From a virus (Duplodnaviria > Heunggongvirae > Uroviricota > Caudoviricetes): a DNA stretch of 29,934 nucleotides. A program made the translations under genes and the position numbers. How positions within the stretch are numbered: position 1 is the stretch's first letter; the number at the start of each line of letters is the position of its first letter. The notes under the pieces were generated by a model. That model was not told the origin of the DNA, made no database searches, and worked only from the letters and a program-made list of their open reading frames with translations. The stretch lies in IMG/VR virus record IMGVR_UViG_2802429225_000009, positions 1-29,934 of that record. The stretch is one strand, 5' to 3'. Positions 3,745-9,857 of this stretch are shown in pieces.

Positions 3745-3944
3745 ACAAAAAGACCTGGTTTCGCGCATACATGTGGGCGCTGGTATGCGTCCTCGTCTCT
3801 CTCATTCTGTATGCAGGACTACTCCCCCGAATGATTTCATCAGACAGCTCCTTCCTGGTATTGCTGGGCATTTTCATTGCCATGCTGTACCCGGCAGGCG
3901 TTGTTCGCCTTTTCAGTAAGTACATCAAGGAAATCAAACAATGA
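3741..3944 (+). CDS. Small integral membrane protein (two predicted TM helices)
   Basis: 67 aa with two hydrophobic stretches (WALVCVLVSLILYAGLL; FLVLLGIFIAMLYPAGVV). Coupled by ATGA overlaps to both neighbours. Sits immediately upstream of the SPFH gene, the position an NfeD-type partner usually occupies. Confidence 0.55.
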   Translation: MNKKTWFRAYMWALVCVLVSLILYAGLLPRMISSDSSFLVLLGIFIAMLYPAGVVRLFSKYIKEIKQ

Positions 3945-4771
3945 AGAAATTCAAACCCTTTCAGATTCTCCCGCTTTTTGCCGCCATCCTGCTGGTTGGC
4001 TGCGATCGCGTTGAGCCAGGTAATGTGGGCATCAAAGTCAACAAGCTGGGCGACGACAAAGGCGTTGGCGAAGTGGTTGGCGTTGGCCGCTACTGGACTG
4101 GCTGGAATACCGAGGTTTACATCTTCCCGACCTTCAAACAAATGAAGACCTACGATGAGCCGTTCAGCTTCCAGATGAGTGACGGCACAACCATCGGCTA
4201 TCACATCGGTGTGGCCTACAAGGTTGATCCATCCAAAGTTACCACTGTGTTTCAGACCTACCGCAAAGGCGTGGATGACATTACCGACACCGACCTGCGC
4301 CAGAAGATCGCCGACGCACTCAACCGACTGGCCAGCAAAATGACCACCGATAAATTTATCGACGGTGGCAAGTCTGAACTGCTGGATTCAGCACTTAAAG
4401 ACATTCAGGCAGAAATGACACCTATCGGCATTCAGGTAATGAGCCTCTCTTATGTGGGTAAGCCGGAATACCCGCCAACCGTTATCGACAGCATTAATGC
4501 CAAAGTCACGGCAAACCAGAAAACTCTGCAACGCGAGCAGGAAGTTAAGCAACGCGAAGCAGAAGCCAACATGCTGCGCGCAGAAGCTGCCGGACAGGCT
4601 GATGCCATTCGAACAAAAGCCCAGGCTGAAGCCGACGCCATTCGTTTACGCGGTGAAGCTCTGCGCCAGAATCCCGGCGTTATGGAGCTGGAAGCGATTA
4701 ACAAATGGAACGGCACGCTACCGCAATACATGACCAGTAACACCGCTGTTCCGTTTGTTCCGGTGAAGTAA
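3941..4771 (+). CDS. SPFH/Band-7 (HflK/HflC-stomatin-like) lipoprotein
   Basis: 276 aa. N-terminal signal peptide with lipobox (AAILLVGC). Band-7 core followed by a C-terminal A/E/Q-rich coiled coil (QREQEVKQREAEANMLRAEAAGQADAIRTKAQAEADAIRLRGEA) typical of HflK/HflC-type proteins. Confidence 0.75.
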   Translation: MKKFKPFQILPLFAAILLVGCDRVEPGNVGIKVNKLGDDKGVGEVVGVGRYWTGWNTEVYIFPTFKQMKTYDEPFSFQMSDGTTIGYHIGVAYKVDPSKVTTVFQTYRKGVDDITDTDLRQKIADALNRLASKMTTDKFIDGGKSELLDSALKDIQAEMTPIGIQVMSLSYVGKPEYPPTVIDSINAKVTANQKTLQREQEVKQREAEANMLRAEAAGQADAIRTKAQAEADAIRLRGEALRQNPGVMELEAINKWNGTLPQYMTSNTAVPFVPVK

Positions 4772-4838
4772 TTCAACCCGGCCAGTGAAACCGCTGGCCG
4801 AAAATATAACGAATAAACAAAAAGCCAGAGGACAGAAC

Positions 4839-4985
4839 ATGCACAAAGCCTTTGAACGATGGATGCGCCAGCGTTACGGCAATCGCTATGACCTGACAAG
4901 GGATGTTGATGGCTACTACTGCCGCGAAATTGTGAAACGAATGTTTGAAGTGTGGTGTCACGCTCGCGGCCTGTACGCCGTGTAA
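4839..4985 (+). CDS. Hypothetical small protein
   Basis: Start re-set to ATG 4839 (MHKAFERWMRQRYGNRYDL...) with AGAGGA 7 nt upstream. The track start at 4785 is GTG inside a hairpin. 48 aa. Confidence 0.35.
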   Translation: MHKAFERWMRQRYGNRYDLTRDVDGYYCREIVKRMFEVWCHARGLYAV

Positions 4986-5019
4986 TCCGTGTCACTGTCA
5001 GAAGCTTAACCCATGTATA

Positions 5020-5146
5020 CACAAAAAAACCGCTTGCCATGCCGCAATCAGTCAGGTTACATTTCCGCTGCACCTCATAAAACGGGTGCCGGGTTTCGCA
5101 GCCTGCTGACAACCAAAGCGCACAACCGCGCCAGCGGTTTTTTTGT
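5020..5146. repeat. Perfect 15-bp inverted repeat pair flanking about 97 bp
   Basis: CACAAAAAAACCGCT at 5020-5034 and its exact reverse complement AGCGGTTTTTTTGTG at 5132-5146. The interior holds further short hairpins. No convincing ORF. Confidence 0.6.
5124..5143 (+). terminator. Candidate intrinsic terminator for the upstream early/moron operon
   Basis: ACCGC-GCCA-GCGGT hairpin (5-bp GC-rich stem, 4-nt loop) followed directly by TTTTTTT at 5137-5143. Stem is short, so confidence is modest. It coincides with the right arm of the 15-bp inverted repeat. Confidence 0.35.
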
Positions 5147-5323
5147 GCGTACTGTATTGCCACGTCTTTTTCGCACACGAATTATGGCGGGGCGTACGGG
5201 GCCGACTTCGGTCGGGCCGGGTTCTTTGGTTGCCGGTACTGCGAACCCCGTACGTCTCGCCACCCACAGTTTCGCAGCTCTGGATGGTGAGTTTTCAAAA
5301 CTTACAACCAAAGAGGCCACTCC

Positions 5324-5554
5324 ATGGCAAACCGCAAACAGCTCCGCGCTATCGCGGAGCGTCGTCACATCCAGACTGAAATCAACCGCAGACTTTCCCG
5401 CGCATTCCGCGTCGCTAAAATCATGCACATCAATATGCTGCATGAGCGTAGCTGCGAACTTTCAAACCTCTACTCATCCGCTGTTTTCAGTTATCTGGCG
5501 GATGATCTGCGCGAGCTTCAGCAGCTCATCCAGCAGCAAAACAAACTCCATTAA
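5324..5554 (+). CDS. Hypothetical protein
   Basis: 76-aa ORF with AAAGAGG 7 nt upstream. Predicted helical and basic. Lies upstream of A. Confidence 0.5.
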   Translation: MANRKQLRAIAERRHIQTEINRRLSRAFRVAKIMHINMLHERSCELSNLYSSAVFSYLADDLRELQQLIQQQNKLH

Positions 5555-5626
5555 TTCCTGTTCCGGGCCTTTCCTGCACCTTGCGGCGGGAGGCCTTCGC
5601 ACATCTGTAACAAGAGGATTGCCGCA

Positions 5627-5992
5627 ATGATTCTCGCCAACGACTTTCTTGAATACCTGCTCAACACAGAGCGTGATCTTGCCGTTCGCGTACGTGAACG
5701 TTATGACATGTACCTGAAATCCCTGCCTGTACCGCAGCTCGCTGACGGAAAGATTGTTATTGATGGTCGCTACATGATTGACAGCCACGAGGGAAATTAC
5801 AGGCTTTACCGCATTGAAGGTGGCACCCCGTCCGTTATTGGCATTTACCAGCGCCCATCCTCTGCAATCGTCGATGTGATTGCCGACAGCATCCGCATCA
5901 CACATCGCCATGCCGACACAGAAGACACCGTGCTGGAAATTCAGCGGCTGGCTGCCGTCTGCCGCGACACCCTGAATGGCATGACGAAGTAA
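5627..5992 (+). CDS. Hypothetical protein immediately upstream of A
   Basis: 121-aa ORF with AGAGGA RBS, tightly packed against the A start. Confidence 0.5.
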   Translation: MILANDFLEYLLNTERDLAVRVRERYDMYLKSLPVPQLADGKIVIDGRYMIDSHEGNYRLYRIEGGTPSVIGIYQRPSSAIVDVIADSIRITHRHADTEDTVLEIQRLAAVCRDTLNGMTK

Positions 5993-5998
5993 ATCACT

Positions 5999-8821
5999 AT
6001 GACGACAGAGTTCATCAGGGACTGGCAACAACCGCGCCACGCAGTAGGGCGTGAAGGAACGGGGATCCCCGCACCTGAATCCGCGCTTTCCTCCTGGCTG
6101 GATGCCTACCGGGCAGAGAACGAGCGCCGCCAGGAAATGGCTGATGCGGCGTTCTCCGCCACGCCGCTGGGCAACCTGATTAATAAAAGCCTGGACGCAC
6201 AGGAAAAACAGGACAAAACCATCACACTGGCAGGAGACGCCAGAAAACAGGCACGCGGCGCGGTGGATGAAGCCATGGCCTCGCTCCGCCTGCTGCCGTC
6301 CTATCTGCGCGATCCGCTTATTCGCCACCTCTCCTTCCTGCGCAAAAAACAGGAAGCTGATCGCCGGAAAGGCAAAAAGAGCTGGCAGGCTGAACGCTAC
6401 GCGCGCGGAACCCTGCGCAAAATATTCGAACGTCTGGATCGCACCGACCACCGCTGGCTGACACCGGGTTATCGCTCCCTTGCCGGACGCGAACACCTGG
6501 ATGATTTGCTTTACCTGCCGCAGCTCAACAAACACCAGATACAGACGCTGGCCGCCATGACGGCGGCGATGTTCAGCAGCACCTTCGAAAAACTCTGCGA
6601 TGGCTTTGGCGCGACCGATGGCGAGCTGACCATGGATGTAACCCTGAAGGCGTATCAGATGCTGGCCCGCATGGCGTTACACCTGCACGCCATGCCTCCA
6701 CATTATGACGCACTGACAACAGACAAAGACCGGAGGAACGAACCGGACACGGAGCTGCTGCCGGGCGCAATCCTTCGCCTGACCTGTGCAGAATGGTGGA
6801 AACGCAAACTGTGGCTGTTACGTTGCGAGTGGCGGGAAGAACAACTCCGCGCCGCCTGTCTGGTTTCCAGAAAAACATCTCCCTATCTGAGCCAGGACGC
6901 GTTAAGCGAGTTTCGCGCACAGCGCGAGAAAACACGCGATTTCCTGAAAAGTTTCATGCTGGAAAACGAAGACGGGTTCACGATTGATCTCGAGACAGTG
7001 TATTACGCGGGAGTAAGTAACCCGGTTCACCGTAAGGCAGAAATGATGGCCACCATGAAGGGGCTGGAGCTTCTGGCCGAAGCCCGTGGCGACAAAGCGG
7101 TGTTTCTGACTGTCACCTGCCCGTCAAAATACCACGCCACAACAGAGAACGGTCATCCGAATCCCAAATGGAACGGGGCCACCATGCGCGACTCCAGCGA
7201 TTACCTGGTTAACACGTTTTTTGCGGCGGTCCGCAAGAAACTGAACCGCGACGGCCTGCGCTGGTATGGCATCCGCACGGTGGAGCCTCACCATGACGGC
7301 ACCGTGCACTGGCATATGATGGTCTTTGCTCATCCGGAAGAAATCGACACCATTGTGTCCCACACCCGCGATATTGCCATTCAGGAAGATCGTCACGAGC
7401 TGGGTGATGATATTACCCCACGCTTTAAGGCGGAGCACGTCGACGGCTCAAAAGGCACACCGACCAGCTACATCGCCACCTACATCGGGAAAAACCTGGA
7501 CAGCCGTGCCGTGGATGGCATCGACCCGAAAACGGGCAAGCCACGCGTTGACCACGAAACAGGTAAATCAATGGCCGAGAGCGTGGAGCGCGCCATCGGC
7601 TGGGCGCGCCTTCACCGGGTCCGCCAGTTCCAGTTCTTTGGCATTCCCTCCCGTCAGGTGTGGCGTGAACTCCGCCGCCTTGCCAGCCAGATGGCACGCA
7701 ACCCGGAAGGCCCGCAACGGCTGAAGGATGACGCAATGGATGCGGTTCTTGCTGCCGCTGATGCCGGGTGTTTTGCCACCTACATTGAAAAACAGGGCGG
7801 CGTACTTGTTCCACGCAAAGACTACCTGATTCGCACCGCCTACGACCTCGCCGATGAGCTGAACGATTACGGCGAACAGAGTGTACAGATTTACGGGATC
7901 TGGTCGCCACTCATCGGGGAATCCTCCCGTGTGTGCACGCATCAGGATAACTGGAAGCTGGTAAGACGCAAACCGGAAGCGAAAGACAGCGCCCGCGAAA
8001 ATGGTTTTGACCTTCAGGGCGGCCCTGCCGCCCCTTGGACTCGTGGCAATAACTGTCCCCGTGTACAGGAAACGGACAACAACGGGACAGAACAGCCGGA
8101 AGAACGGCCAGCACCGTGGCCGCAGCTTCCTGACGGCGTTGAAGTAAATGAATGGATGCGCTCACTGAAACGGCACGAACGCCGGGCGCTGATGCGTTCG
8201 CTTCGTGACAAACAGGCAAAAAACAGCAGCGATGAAATGCAGAACTGGACACAGAGCCGCAAACAGCCACAGCCTTTGCCTGATAACCACGAGTTACTCG
8301 CTAAAGAATGGCGGGAGTCTGCTGAATCTCTCGGCCTGCATATCGGTGAACAGCAGATGCAGCACCTGTTACGGGGCGGCAGCCTGTACGTTGACGGCAG
8401 CATCATTGCACCGCAGGGATTTGAAATTGTACGCAAACCGGATACCCGCCCGGACAGCCGAATCACGCAGCTCTGGCAGCGCCTGAGCCGCAATCACGGC
8501 GTAAGCAGCACGGAGATCCGTCATAACCCGGTCGCCAGCTATCTGGAACAGCTGGGGGCATCAGACCCCGAAGCCGCCGCACGCCTGGCATCCACACTTC
8601 AGCAAGACCAGAACACCATGAAAACACCCGTTACCGTGCTTTCTGACATGCTGCGCGCCATCCGTGACGCAGAGCACGCACAGAGAATCAGTGAAACCAC
8701 TGAACGCGCCCGCCGCAAAGCAAACCTGCTGCGGGGTGGCCTGACCAGTGGAAACAAAAAACAGACAAAAACGGGATTTACAAATCCCGTAAATGAGCAA
8801 AAAACGCGCCGCGATATATGA
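5999..8821 (+). CDS. A: Rolling-circle replication initiator (HUH endonuclease), P2 gpA family
   Basis: 940-aa ORF. HUH-type motif (HHDGTVHWHMMVFAHPEE) and other blocks remembered from P2/186 A proteins. Position after the early genes matches P2. The C-terminal ~180 aa is longer than I recall for P2 A and overlaps the first palindromic site, so the true stop could be earlier if there is a sequencing frameshift. Confidence 0.85.
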   Translation: MTTEFIRDWQQPRHAVGREGTGIPAPESALSSWLDAYRAENERRQEMADAAFSATPLGNLINKSLDAQEKQDKTITLAGDARKQARGAVDEAMASLRLLPSYLRDPLIRHLSFLRKKQEADRRKGKKSWQAERYARGTLRKIFERLDRTDHRWLTPGYRSLAGREHLDDLLYLPQLNKHQIQTLAAMTAAMFSSTFEKLCDGFGATDGELTMDVTLKAYQMLARMALHLHAMPPHYDALTTDKDRRNEPDTELLPGAILRLTCAEWWKRKLWLLRCEWREEQLRAACLVSRKTSPYLSQDALSEFRAQREKTRDFLKSFMLENEDGFTIDLETVYYAGVSNPVHRKAEMMATMKGLELLAEARGDKAVFLTVTCPSKYHATTENGHPNPKWNGATMRDSSDYLVNTFFAAVRKKLNRDGLRWYGIRTVEPHHDGTVHWHMMVFAHPEEIDTIVSHTRDIAIQEDRHELGDDITPRFKAEHVDGSKGTPTSYIATYIGKNLDSRAVDGIDPKTGKPRVDHETGKSMAESVERAIGWARLHRVRQFQFFGIPSRQVWRELRRLASQMARNPEGPQRLKDDAMDAVLAAADAGCFATYIEKQGGVLVPRKDYLIRTAYDLADELNDYGEQSVQIYGIWSPLIGESSRVCTHQDNWKLVRRKPEAKDSARENGFDLQGGPAAPWTRGNNCPRVQETDNNGTEQPEERPAPWPQLPDGVEVNEWMRSLKRHERRALMRSLRDKQAKNSSDEMQNWTQSRKQPQPLPDNHELLAKEWRESAESLGLHIGEQQMQHLLRGGSLYVDGSIIAPQGFEIVRKPDTRPDSRITQLWQRLSRNHGVSSTEIRHNPVASYLEQLGASDPEAAARLASTLQQDQNTMKTPVTVLSDMLRAIRDAEHAQRISETTERARRKANLLRGGLTSGNKKQTKTGFTNPVNEQKTRRDI

Positions 8822-8897: not shown

Positions 8898-9857
8898 ATG
8901 AAAATTTGTATCGACGACGGCTCCACCAACATCAAGCTGGCATGGACTGAGAACGGCGAACGCCGCAACGCCATCAGCCCGAACAGCTTCAAGTCGGAAT
9001 GGTCTGCGCCGTTCGGTGGCACGCAGCCCGCAAACTACATGCTTGATGGCGTGCGCTATGGTTTTGATCCGGTCAGCGATCGCTTTGTCCAGACGACCGA
9101 CACGCAATACCAGTACAGCGATGTGAATGTCATTGCCATTCATCACGCGCTGGTCAAATCAGGTATCACACCACAGGAAGTGGATGTGGTTGTCACCCTG
9201 CCACTGAGCGAGTATTTCGACACAAACGCCCAGCCGGATATGACCAACATCAACCGCAAAAAAGCGAACGTTATGCGCCCGGTGGAGTATCAGAACAGTG
9301 AGGCATTCACTATCCGCAACGTACGGGTTATGCCTGAATCCATTCCGGCTGGCTTTAAGGCACTGGCTGACATGAGTCAGTTTGAATCCCTGCTGATTGT
9401 GGATTTGGGCGGAACCACGCTGGATGTGGCAAAGGTTCAGGGACAACTGGCAGGTATCAGCCAGGTGTTTTGCGATCCACACGTAGGCGTTTCTCTGATG
9501 GCCGATGCCGTGCTGTCGGTGATGGCCACCAACGGTATGCGTACCAGTCACCACATCGCTAATACCATTATCGAACATCGCCACGATGAAGCCTGGCTGC
9601 GCCAGCACATCCACAATAACGCACATTACGCCAGCCTGATGGCAGTTATTCGTGAAAAGGAGGAAACACTGAAACAACGCGTGATCCGCGCGCTGGCGGG
9701 TTTTTCGGGTTACGGGCGGGTGATGGTTGTAGGTGGAGGAGCGGAGATTGTGGCACCCGCTATCCGCGAAGCCTGCGGAGTTAATGCGACTTTCATCGCG
9801 GACGGGGTGCCACAGTTTGCTCTGGTTAATGGGCTGTACGCAATGGACAAGGAGTAA
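8898..9857 (+). CDS. parM: ParM/StbA actin-like segregation ATPase
   Basis: 319 aa. N-terminus MKICIDDGSTNIKLAW...ISPNSFKSEW...QYSDVNVIAIHHALVKSGI tracks remembered R1 ParM (MLVFIDDGSTNIKLQW...ISPNSFKREW...QYSDVNVVAVHHALLTSGL). Actin-fold phosphate motifs (DDGST; DLGGTTLD). AAGGA RBS. Confidence 0.85.
   Translation: MKICIDDGSTNIKLAWTENGERRNAISPNSFKSEWSAPFGGTQPANYMLDGVRYGFDPVSDRFVQTTDTQYQYSDVNVIAIHHALVKSGITPQEVDVVVTLPLSEYFDTNAQPDMTNINRKKANVMRPVEYQNSEAFTIRNVRVMPESIPAGFKALADMSQFESLLIVDLGGTTLDVAKVQGQLAGISQVFCDPHVGVSLMADAVLSVMATNGMRTSHHIANTIIEHRHDEAWLRQHIHNNAHYASLMAVIREKEETLKQRVIRALAGFSGYGRVMVVGGGAEIVAPAIREACGVNATFIADGVPQFALVNGLYAMDKE

Follow-up and report, generated by a model that had tools for sequence, protein, structure and literature searches.

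The segment at 5013-5630 of the analysed DNA (29,934 nt in all, herein the window) is, with a probability of roughly 85%, an antisense-RNA immunity cassette of the P4/P1 type, carried by a P88-like prophage of the P2 family. The cassette is real, yet ordinary, because an RNA "immunity" switch is already known from phages P1 and P4; both of its RNAs belong to families that are already catalogued. The original prediction of a structured regulatory non-coding RNA together with a termination structure was correct in its headline, and every structure that it named lies where it had been placed. What it had taken for a single unknown element is instead, as Rfam reveals, an IsrK/SeqA-like RNA and a C4/CI-like RNA with their antisense target sites. 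Only two points are mildly new, a clade-specific inverted repeat and a nested epsilon-like gene, and they open no long-standing question.

Genomic setting of the cassette

The window is a P88-like prophage (Xuanwuvirus, P2 family) with genes for a P2-type integrase, C (the repressor, 1057-1386), Cox, gpA, portal and terminase. Judged by the genes that mark a P4 satellite (the alpha primase and sid/delta/psu), the element is not a satellite; its gene set is that of a helper-type phage equipped with the cassette. The cassette lies in the early operon, immediately 5' of an antirepressor-like gene and replication gene A. The description of the region as GC-rich holds only modestly: 4990-5320 has 54.1% GC, the window in its entirety 52.3%, and a high value is confined to C4 (65.9%).

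Two adjacent small RNAs of known families

The + strand carries two adjacent Rfam families, isrK and then C4, and not one novel RNA:

5034-5063, + strand: predicted sigma-70 promoter of IsrK (TTGCCA, 18 nt, TACATT), positional analogue of P4 PLE
5070-5144, + strand: IsrK/SeqA-like small RNA (RF01394, 65.9 bits, threshold 50, model positions 1-77 of 77)
5124-5146, + strand: IsrK intrinsic terminator (hairpin 5124-5139 plus U run; 5132-5146 is the right arm of the inverted repeat)
5180-5267, + strand: C4/CI-type antisense RNA (RF01695, 87.1 bits, threshold 45, model positions 1-87 of 87)

Both families stand above their gathering thresholds in the covariance-model search, and C4 starts about 35 nt past the end of IsrK. 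A scan of 4700-5800 at a cut-off of E <= 1 returned no Rfam family beyond these two and a sub-threshold match to c4-a1b1 (RF03163, 20.5 bits at 5057-5109, below the threshold of 46.7). The upstream target region performs the a1/b1 role, but it files under isrK and not under RF03163. Moreover, the RNA of 5010-5330 folds more stably than its shuffles (-130 vs -101 +/- 5 kcal/mol, z = -5.75).

Dense nested inverted repeats in a seemingly non-coding gap could also point to another kind of element: a retron (msr/msd), an attachment site resembling a tRNA, an origin of replication or several protein-binding sites. The chance of this is negligible: ARAGORN found neither a tRNA nor a tmRNA, the Rfam scan of 4700-5800 gave nothing but C4, isrK and c4-a1b1 at E <= 1, and the full-length matches to C4 and isrK account for every structure. 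The retron had been considered unlikely from the start, and indeed no reverse transcriptase is found among the neighbouring genes.

IsrK shows the layout of two hairpins, a single-stranded linker and an intrinsic terminator, and its model also matches the seqA region of P4 (60.8 bits). Hfq binding is a listed trait of the isrK family, to which the P4 seqA RNA belongs. Compensatory changes are seen in 6 of the 10 pairs of hairpins 1 and 2. The predicted hairpin with a T run (AACCGC-GCCA-GCGGTT and then Ts, 5124-5146) is present on the + strand and terminator-like; its stem reads AACCGC/GCGGTT, GACGCG/CGCGTC or ACACGC/GCGTGT depending on the clade, in an alignment too poor here for a formal count. 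The candidate promoter has 9 of 12 consensus matches, where 1.5 such sites are expected by chance in the region, and similar hexamers occupy the equivalent place in other clades, P4 included.

In the C4 fold, an outer stem of 17 bp (5185-5201 / 5246-5262) encloses two hairpins, the first with a UUCG loop and the second with a loop of 12 nt. An outer stem around a CCGAC-TTCG-GTCGG hairpin and a second hairpin had been recognised before, and only the length of 9 bp given for it has to be corrected, its arms being 17 nt long. The model also matches the CI RNA of P4 (74.9 bits). Among 68 distinct homologous sequences 96.8% of the cells are paired, and 18 of the 26 C4 pairs change on both sides, which bears out the call for compensatory base changes. 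The covariation score was 0.508 vs 0.214 in shuffles (the observed value was reached by 0 of 500), and it dropped to 0.07-0.11 when the partners were slid. Hairpin 2 was unable to vary in this set, because the homologue search pattern fixed its stem.

In the C4/CI RNAs, as they are described for P4 and P1, RNase P cuts the precursor at an acceptor-stem-like helix with a CCA-like tail after it; a mature RNA of about 77 nt is thereby released from the leader, represses downstream genes and confers superinfection immunity. The corresponding helix in the window ends in CGCCA, followed by CCC. The statement that the region is not tRNA-like was half right, as ARAGORN reports no tRNA but the C4/CI family has this acceptor-stem-like helix. 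A promoter-like sequence at 5157-5185 (TTGCCA-17-AATTAT) was considered as a C4 promoter and rejected: its start would fall in the 5' stem of C4, its -35 hexamer is unconserved in other clades, and its "-10" belongs to the conserved AATTATGG 5' flank of C4.

Recognition segments and their targets

C4 has two recognition segments, and each of them is complementary to one site upstream and one site downstream of the pair of segments:

5095-5101, + strand: a1 target TTCGCAG in the IsrK hairpin 2 loop, complement of a' in C4
5110-5118, + strand: b1 target CAACCAAAG in the linker of IsrK, complement of the b' loop in C4
5223-5232, + strand: C4 b' recognition loop UCUUUGGUUG, complement of b1 (5110-5118) and b2 (5305-5314)
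5239-5245, + strand: C4 a' recognition segment CUGCGAA, complement of a1 (5095-5101) and a2 (5271-5277)
5271-5277, + strand: a2 target TTCGCAG, just 3' of C4
5305-5314, + strand: b2 target CAACCAAAGA, overlapping the Shine-Dalgarno sequence AAGAGG (5311-5316); the ATG is at 5324

These single-stranded segments of C4 are hypervariable: 98 unique loci hold 40 different b' loops and 29 different a' segments in 57 a'/b' combinations. A complement of at least 7 nt to the segments of the same locus is found for a1 in 99%, a2 in 99%, b2 in 87% and b1 in 66% of the loci, with the target sites at fixed offsets, vs 1-2% for the foreign-loop control. Since b1 is recognisable in only 66% of the loci, the upstream sites may not have the same role in every clade. 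P88 is about 92% identical to the window in this region, yet a', b' and all four targets differ in matching fashion. The duplex of C4 with a1b1 has a predicted energy of -37.7 kcal/mol, and the one with a2..b2 of -34.2 kcal/mol.

The eta-like frame and the downstream genes

The RNAs are overlapped by a long reading frame, and further genes follow it on the same strand:

5013-5630, + strand: eta-like read-through ORF, 205 aa (Pfam Phage_ASH at aa 16-108)
5324-5554, + strand: epsilon-like "derepression protein" gene, 76 aa (PF25738 Derepression, 29.3 bits, threshold 27, a marginal match)
5627-5992, + strand: downstream gene, 121 aa, phrog_3237, its start coupled to the eta-like ORF stop
5999-8821, + strand: P2-type replication initiator gpA, 940 aa (PF05840, 437.9 bits)

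It had been claimed that the region has no credible coding frame and that the ORFs called on both strands are probably artefacts of its GC content. On the + strand this fails, for the ORF at 5013-5630 matches Phage_ASH, is the counterpart of P4 eta and is open in most homologous loci. On the - strand it holds: the frames at 5052-5267 (counterpart of P88 gp13) and 5075-5443 have no family matches, are open in 42 and 5 of the 93 loci, respectively, and were discarded as artefacts.

The eta-like ORF starts 5' of the predicted IsrK promoter and spans IsrK, C4, a2/b2 and, in another frame, the epsilon-like gene from end to end. At the 3' end of the ORF, its TGA (5628-5630) overlaps the next ATG (5627) as ATGA, and an ATGA overlap with the next gene marks the end of this frame in most enterobacterial clades. 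A weak Shine-Dalgarno candidate is all that precedes its start (AGAAG, 8 nt before the ATG at 5013). The Phage_ASH match derives from the translation of 5058-5337 (31.7 bits, threshold 26); P4 eta scores 82.2 bits on the same model, and Phage_ASH over the RNA region is common to P4 eta and a lambdoid Rha antirepressor. By BLASTP, the 205-aa product has no significant similarity to P4 eta, and the relation is visible only through the Phage_ASH HMM, i.e., through the shared RNA sequence. The eta-like frame is free of stops over 240 nt in 73 of 93 loci, vs 2 and 7 for the other two frames, although part of this openness is inherited because many loci are closely related. Additionally, it is open in 14 of 14 alleles of the overlapped epsilon-like gene, where resampling of synonymous codons expects 2.5-43%.

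The above-threshold Phage_ASH match, the frame open in 73 of 93 loci and the label "ash family protein" that PGAP gives here in many E. coli genomes might suggest that a protein-coding gene is primary and the RNA structures are incidental. We regard this as very improbable. The conserved coding frame that had been set against an RNA is not seen in the way that was meant: the frame is kept open, but its IsrK-C4 part shows no third-position substitution excess (position 2 is the most changed), and the eta-like peptide bears no mark of selection by codon position. In more distant members the frame is interrupted by stops, yet the RNA fold and the loop-target complementarity are kept. RNA covariation is strong in the helices, and the hypervariable positions are exactly the antisense sites, with concerted change at three places; RefSeq itself marks the "ash family protein" feature as an incomplete pseudogene. 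The former "cI protein" of P4 is an RNA in the present view (PMC4825925, PMC3632133, PMC10111431). The account of P4 in PMC10111431 describes eta as translated across the immunity RNAs, and this translation, on RNA from an upstream promoter, as preventing Rho-dependent termination (timm).

The 76-aa product of the epsilon-like gene shares 29% identity over 66 aa with P4 epsilon (BLASTP, E = 1e-8), and the gene shows a third-position substitution bias. It would be the first gene under the control of C4, at the position of P4 kil. The 121-aa protein has no similarity to P4 orf151, and an NCBIfam search with the small genes gave no matches. The gpA gene is probably the distal gene of the controlled transcription unit.

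Comparison with known RNA immunity systems

The window shares its order of elements with P4: both Rfam models match P4 (seqA and CI), and a promoter (a predicted one in the window), a target-bearing RNA with a terminator, an antisense RNA and a target on the Shine-Dalgarno sequence of the first gene succeed one another in both, paralleling the P4 gene order PLE-seqA-CI-seqC-kil/eta-epsilon-...-alpha. The spacing is almost the same as well: counted from the reference point, b2 lies at +96 in the window and +94 in P4, and the start codon at +115 and +113, respectively. In both, a Phage_ASH/eta-type ORF starts 5' of the internal promoter and spans the RNAs, and an epsilon homologue and then a replication gene lie downstream. 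Unlike the P4 satellite, the window is a full P2-like phage that has a C/Cox switch of its own, and its replication gene is a P2-type gpA, not an alpha primase. It lacks kil, in whose place the epsilon-like gene stands, nested out of frame in the eta-like ORF. The gap between IsrK and C4 is 35 nt vs about 107 nt in P4, and the 15-bp inverted repeat is present in the window but not in P4.

The immI region of P1/P7 (a1 b1 - c4 - a2 b2 - icd - ant1/2) shares with the window the C4 family, a'/b' and targets on both sides. As in the window, the downstream target of P1/P7 covers the site where ribosomes bind to the first ORF, and the controlled product is an antirepressor, as is predicted for the window (for P1, PMC8198154, citing Citron and Schuster 1990). 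In P1 the RNA adds a second immunity layer beside a protein repressor (PMC8198154), and in the window it would do likewise. In contrast to P1/P7, the upstream targets of the window score with isrK, while the P1-derived c4-a1b1 model reaches only 20.5 bits, and the downstream genes are unrelated to icd/ant as the literature describes them for P1.

The isrK - orf45 (STnc1160) - anrP region of Gifsy-1 has a layout like that of the window: an sRNA of the IsrK family is followed by a C4-like RNA inside an ORF and then by an antirepressor-like gene. In Gifsy-1, the sRNA comes from a promoter of its own, for which the window has a predicted counterpart, and ends at a leaky terminator; the C4-like RNA is processed and the small ORF around it translated, as would be the case in the window. 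IsrK and STnc1160 are highly transcribed in lysogens (PMC7067206). The Gifsy-1 ORF has 45 codons, ends at anrP and couples translation, whereas the frame in the window has 205 codons, begins 5' of the predicted promoter and extends over the antirepressor-like gene in full. The short IsrK RNA of Gifsy-1 activates, and does not repress, downstream translation (PMC4825925), and trans activation by IsrK is demonstrated for Gifsy-1 only.

Given this, IsrK of the window might be mainly a trans activator that pairs with the read-through transcript or sponges C4 via a1/b1; the opened structure would then turn on translation of the antirepressor-like gene, and IsrK would be more than a target for termination in cis. 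We consider such a main role possible but unlikely. When IsrK is provided in trans in Gifsy-1, translation of anrP rises by a factor of more than 100, and IsrK is complementary in part to the C4-like STnc1160 (PMC4825925); IsrK of the window likewise has perfect a1/b1 complements to C4, with the predicted duplex of -37.7 kcal/mol. However, the P4 seqA RNA, a homologue of IsrK, is required for the establishment of immunity, IsrK-like sequences of two P4-like prophages were required in S. Typhi TraDIS (PMC3632133), and the pairing of helix b-I, which involves a 3' part of orf45, is a feature described for Gifsy-1. The roles of IsrK as a trans activator and as a cis target are mutually compatible.

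The lambdoid and Stx-phage Phage_ASH-Rha genes (133 phage records) have about 70% nucleotide identity to the window from the IsrK start on, with the same layout of isrK, C4 and a2/b2. Unlike in the window, their Ash reading frame forms an in-frame fusion with a Rha-domain antirepressor, and the region of the left repeat arm differs because the promoter-proximal sequence differs.

The 15-bp inverted repeat

The perfect 15-nt inverted repeat, CACAAAAAAACCGCT (5020-5034) / AGCGGTTTTTTTGTG (5132-5146), is confirmed, but its arms do not enclose an RNA of the predicted local promoter: the left arm lies 5' of the IsrK start by the -35 hexamer, and the right arm is part of the IsrK terminator.

5020-5034, + strand: left arm of the repeat; its last base is the first of the -35 hexamer, and it supplies codons 3-8 of the eta-like frame

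The repeat extends to 23-nt arms with 87% complementarity (5015-5037 / 5130-5152). The left arm has an A7 run around -46 to -40 relative to the IsrK start, a position like that of an UP element. On the - strand, no adequate terminator hairpin exists at the left arm, and none was reported by the terminator scan. The repeat is limited to a clade: 15 nt are kept in 20 unique loci, the window included, and 10-11 nt in four more (L038 and L101, members of the clade, and L022 and L123 of a related clade), and it is absent from the P4-like and lambdoid clades of the surveyed loci. A complement between the A tract and a second T run in L034, L073 and L095 was examined as covariation and rejected, that T run not being the IsrK terminator.

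Possibly, the repeat acts in transcripts that read in from upstream, where the left arm would capture the 3' half and the U tract of the IsrK terminator; termination might be abolished, an RNase III-type duplex formed or the start region of the eta-like ORF masked, and read-in transcripts would thus be treated differently from those of the IsrK promoter itself. This role for the repeat is doubtful, although several observations speak for it. The length exceeds chance (the longest perfect inverted repeats in 300 shuffled versions of 4990-5320 had a mean of 7.5 nt and a maximum of 11), the repeat is kept in the loci just named, and the left arm occurs in read-in RNAs only, because it lies outside the IsrK-promoter transcript. 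Additionally, the predicted duplex (-27 kcal/mol) is stronger than the local terminator (-17.5 kcal/mol), and the read-in RNA of 5005-5155 folds at -57.7 kcal/mol with the long-range helix vs -43.5 kcal/mol with the left arm blocked. However, the arms show no covariation, being identical or merely shortened among relatives, and a competitor 97 nt away would be kinetically disfavoured, as the U tract is still inside the polymerase at termination. Other clades keep the A tract upstream of the -35 hexamer, with terminators that are not complementary to it, which suggests that the A tract is an UP-like promoter element or codes for Lys/Asn, and that the T tract belongs to the terminator.

A proposed mechanism

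On the homology with P4, P1/P7 and Gifsy-1, we postulate that in the lysogen the internal IsrK promoter would fire constitutively and that most of its transcripts would end at the IsrK terminator. Those that read through would be processed, with RNase P acting at the 5' end as far as the accounts of the homologous RNAs describe it, to stable C4. By the same homology, C4 would pair with a2/b2, and also with a1/b1 on nascent RNA, which would block translation of the epsilon-like gene and expose the RNA to Rho-dependent termination; the antirepressor-like gene and gpA would be off because of this translation block and termination. A superinfecting phage with a matching a'/b' type would be blocked likewise, so that a'/b' would set the specificity of immunity.

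The events after derepression are less certain. Transcripts from an upstream early promoter may then carry the start of the eta-like ORF (ATG 5013), and ribosomes in this frame could unfold the terminator, C4 and the target sites, keep Rho from acting and reach the 121-aa gene through the ATGA overlap. Read-in transcripts might thereby escape the RNA immunity in the way shown for P4 eta, and the 15-bp repeat may help by replacing the terminator hairpin in them.

We speculate, though the odds are clearly against it, that the cassette of P88-like phages is a four-layer overlapping device that reads the origin of a transcript, read-in RNAs cancelling the terminator, the antisense block and Rho together. 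In such a device, the 205-codon "spacer" ORF may have the sole role of carrying translation across the terminator, C4, the targets and the epsilon-like gene; only early-promoter RNAs may hold both the left repeat arm and the ORF start, while the internal-promoter RNAs may make the immunity RNAs. To our knowledge, an antirepressor nested out of frame in a read-through ORF, combined with a promoter-distal anti-terminator arm, is undescribed for P4, P1 and Gifsy-1.

Distribution and annotation

The RNA cassette is without annotation in the present prophage record. The homologous region occurs in 1283 of 5426 complete E. coli genomes and, additionally, in P88-type phages. Among the records listed for it, the region is annotated as a pseudogene "ash family protein", as hypothetical proteins or within over-long antirepressor CDSs, and there is no RNA gene among the annotated features listed. 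The value of the identification is mostly one for annotation. The cassette explains an RNA-based immunity layer over the antirepressor-like and replication genes of P2-like prophages. The a'/b' loops give a simple sequence read-out of the immunity type, with 57 combinations in our survey, and the co-variation of loops and targets is a clean natural data set on antisense specificity.

Results

A scan of the entire window against Rfam at curated thresholds gave exactly two matches, isrK and C4 antisense RNA, both inside the segment at 4990-5320, on the + strand and over the full model length. By the testable features of RF01695 and RF01394 the element belongs to both families, and it does not reach RF03163 (20.5 bits vs. 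a threshold of 46.7). The covariance models bear out the original prediction, made from the sequence alone, of a structured segment, as does RNA folding, in which the 321-nt region was 5.75 standard deviations more stable than shuffles.

Features of the cassette (window coordinates)
5070-5144, +, isrK RNA (RF01394), 65.9 bits, threshold 50
5180-5267, +, C4 antisense RNA (RF01695), 87.1 bits, threshold 45
5239-5245, +, a', exposed C4 recognition segment, complementary to a1 (5095-5101, loop of IsrK hairpin 2) and a2 (5271-5277, just 3' of C4)
5223-5232, +, b', exposed C4 recognition segment, complementary to b1 (5110-5118, IsrK linker) and b2 (5305-5314, about 35 nt beyond a2)

The hairpin with a T run that had been noticed earlier is the IsrK terminator, a terminator-like site on the + strand at 5124-5146, and the nested structure at 5186-5262 is C4, although its outer stem measures 17 bp and not the 9 bp described. 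The segment, called GC-rich, is only mildly so (54.1%, the whole window being at 52.3%); C4 by itself reaches 65.9%. The window is a P88-like P2-family prophage of the genus Xuanwuvirus, with the gene order integrase, C-type repressor, Cox, early-operon genes, SPFH lipoprotein, cassette, 76-aa gene, 121-aa gene, replication gene A, ParM, portal and terminase. The 76-aa gene (5324-5554, +) is a homologue of epsilon, the derepression protein of P4 (Pfam PF25738, 29.3 bits; 29% identity, E = 1e-8). Comparison of the segment with phage records gave 9 matches at 92-94% identity, while 133 further lambdoid or Stx phages match it from the IsrK start onward at ~70%.

A pattern scan of IMG/VR that fixed a portion of hairpin 1 and the hairpin 2 stem, and nothing else, yielded 120 loci, some 100 of them C4 cassettes. 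Among 68 distinct C4 sequences, 96.8% of cells were paired, two-sided changes occurred in 18 of the 26 pairs, and the covariation score was 0.508, compared with 0.214 for shuffles (0/500 reached the observed value) and ~0.07-0.11 for slid partners; compensatory changes were also found in 6/10 pairs of IsrK hairpins 1-2. The unpaired C4 segments are hypervariable (40 variants of the 12-nt loop b', 29 of a' and 57 combinations in 98 loci), and within each locus the matching complements a1, b1, a2 and b2 lie at fixed offsets. Same-locus complements of at least 7 nt were present for a1 and a2 in 99% of loci each, for b2 in 87% and for b1 in 66%, vs. 1-2% for foreign loops, and the differences between P88 and the window in a', in b' and in each of the four targets are coordinated. 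Concerted change of this kind marks an antisense immunity determinant. In the window, the b2 site overlaps the Shine-Dalgarno sequence of the epsilon-like gene (AAGAGG, 5311-5316; ATG at 5324).

The long ORFs had been dismissed on both strands as artefacts of high GC, which holds for the - strand (no family matches; corresponding frames open in only 42/93 and 5/93 loci) but not for the + strand ORF at 5013-5630, whose residues 16-108, the translation of IsrK and C4, match Pfam Phage_ASH. P4 eta belongs to the same family (82 bits), and a lambdoid antirepressor is a Phage_ASH-Rha fusion. This Ash frame is stop-free across 240 nt in 73/93 loci, compared with 2 and 7 for the other two frames. In most enterobacterial clades it begins upstream of the internal promoter, and its stop codon overlaps the start of the following gene as ATGA (TGA 5628-5630 and ATG 5627 in the window); in the window clade, it spans the entire epsilon-like gene in a different frame. 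All 14 epsilon-like alleles leave the Ash frame open, where synonymous resampling keeps it open in only 2.5-43% of cases, and substitutions in the epsilon-like gene prefer its own third positions (e.g., 17 vs. 7 and 7; 27 vs. 17 and 17). In the IsrK-C4 part, substitutions did not favour the third positions of the Ash frame; hence, selection does not act on the Ash peptide sequence, the frame being merely kept translatable. P4 eta reportedly starts upstream of the constitutive promoter PLE and is translated only on upstream-promoter transcripts, its translation blocking immunity-dependent termination (PMC10111431); a frame kept translatable agrees with this. In one relative (IMG/VR locus L091), the beginning of the epsilon-like gene (equivalent of window 5324-5400) carries an in-frame deletion, which preserves both the epsilon-like and the eta-like frames.

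The perfect 15-nt inverted repeat is indeed present (5020-5034 and 5132-5146) and extends to 23-nt arms with 87% complementarity; in 300 segment shuffles the longest inverted repeat averaged 7.5 nt, with a maximum of 11. Its right arm is formed by the IsrK terminator's 3' half together with its U run and GUG. Its left arm, codons 3-8 of the eta-like ORF, ends on the first base of the predicted -35 hexamer and carries an A7 run at about -46 to -40 relative to the IsrK start. Since the left arm lies upstream of that start, it would be missing from IsrK-promoter transcripts; on a read-in transcript, the long-range helix is predicted to be preferred by ~14 kcal/mol over the terminator-containing fold. 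The repeat reaches 15 nt in 20 unique clade loci including the window and 10-11 nt in 4 more (2 from a related clade), no compensatory changes in its arms were seen among the compared loci, and in other clades the A tract ahead of the -35 hexamer is all that is kept, their terminators being unrelated. A dedicated RNA function, as an anti-terminator or processing duplex for read-in transcripts, seems to us rather improbable. The alternative is that the repeat arose in this clade as a by-product of an A tract, UP-like or coding for Lys, opposite the terminator U tract; from its sequence, the left arm looks like a copied terminator 5' half, its A run extended to fit the U run. The IsrK terminator itself sits in a larger imperfect palindrome (5117-5150), CGCACAA-CCGC-GCCA-GCGG-TT(TTTTT)GTGCG.

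A second sigma-70-like match, TTGCCA-17-AATTAT (5157-5185), is found immediately 5' of C4, with a -10 hexamer that falls within the conserved AATTATGG sequence flanking C4. A start there would truncate the C4 outer stem, so this site is probably no promoter, but P1 reportedly possesses more than one c4 promoter.

Discussion

In P4, the same two Rfam models match the seqA region and the CI RNA, which, together with the epsilon homologue, makes the segment the counterpart of the P4 immunity region, P1/P7 immI and Gifsy-1 isrK-STnc1160-anrP, regions already handled as one system (PMC4825925, PMC3632133, PMC10111431, PMC8198154). The window shares with P4 the eta/Phage_ASH ORF and the epsilon homologue but lacks a kil gene, whose position is occupied by the epsilon-like gene, which lies inside the eta-like ORF in another frame; moreover, its IsrK-C4 spacing is tighter and it has the inverted repeat. 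The element is not a P4 satellite, since it is carried by a complete P2-like phage that encodes gpA (the replication initiator). The cassette is real, well explained by this known system and already known in kind.

The region has homologues in 1283 of 5426 complete E. coli genomes. Comparison of annotation at window 4990-5320, L125 2491-2754, L001 5033-5221 and L003 2141-3292 (L numbers denoting surveyed homologous loci) revealed that it is consistently protein-centred: the RefSeq record examined lists only a pseudogene ('ash family protein', marked incomplete), in P88 a hypothetical CDS occupies the opposite strand, in phage mEp460 a 383-aa 'transcriptional regulator' CDS (Phage_ASH + Phage_pRha) engulfs IsrK and C4, and no record examined lists an ncRNA feature at the cassette. 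The value of the cassette lies in annotation and in a tidy example of loop-target co-variation.

The analysis establishes the parts of the cassette, their order, covariation and complementarities, and its homologues suggest how it may work. The predicted internal promoter (5034-5063) would be constitutive in the lysogen, with most transcripts ending at the IsrK terminator and read-through RNA being processed to C4. C4 would pair with a2/b2 (and a1/b1) and switch off translation of the epsilon-like gene, enabling Rho to terminate ahead of the 121-aa gene (5627-5992, +) and gpA, while the a'/b' sequences would set immunity specificity. More tentatively, early-operon transcripts might include the eta-like start codon and, being translated, might evade the terminator, C4 and Rho and bring ribosomes to the 121-aa gene. 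Immunity would then have two layers, the protein repressor C and the RNA, like C1 and C4 in P1 (PMC8198154). By analogy with Gifsy-1, IsrK may also act in trans, as an activator or a C4 sponge (PMC4825925).

Two C4 cassettes with unlike a'/b' loops were found on one viral contig in L022 (250-278 and 7874-7902; one P4-like, the other related to the window type) and in L076 (7054-7082 and 7923-7951). Hence, a single element, or a phage with an embedded satellite, can hold two RNA immunity specificities.

Directly upstream of the cassette lie the SPFH/Band-7 lipoprotein gene (3941-4771) and a small gene, phrog_3871 (4785-4985). Homology to other P88-like phages begins only at ~5012-5020. A cargo (moron) insertion point, variable among relatives (P88, Shae_phiSM, ST131 prophage), therefore seems to lie at the junction immediately 5' of the eta-like start. 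Finally, although this P2-like prophage bears an integrase, its replication gene A is followed, as in P88, by a ParM-type partition ATPase gene (8898-9857), which hints at a plasmid-like maintenance option.
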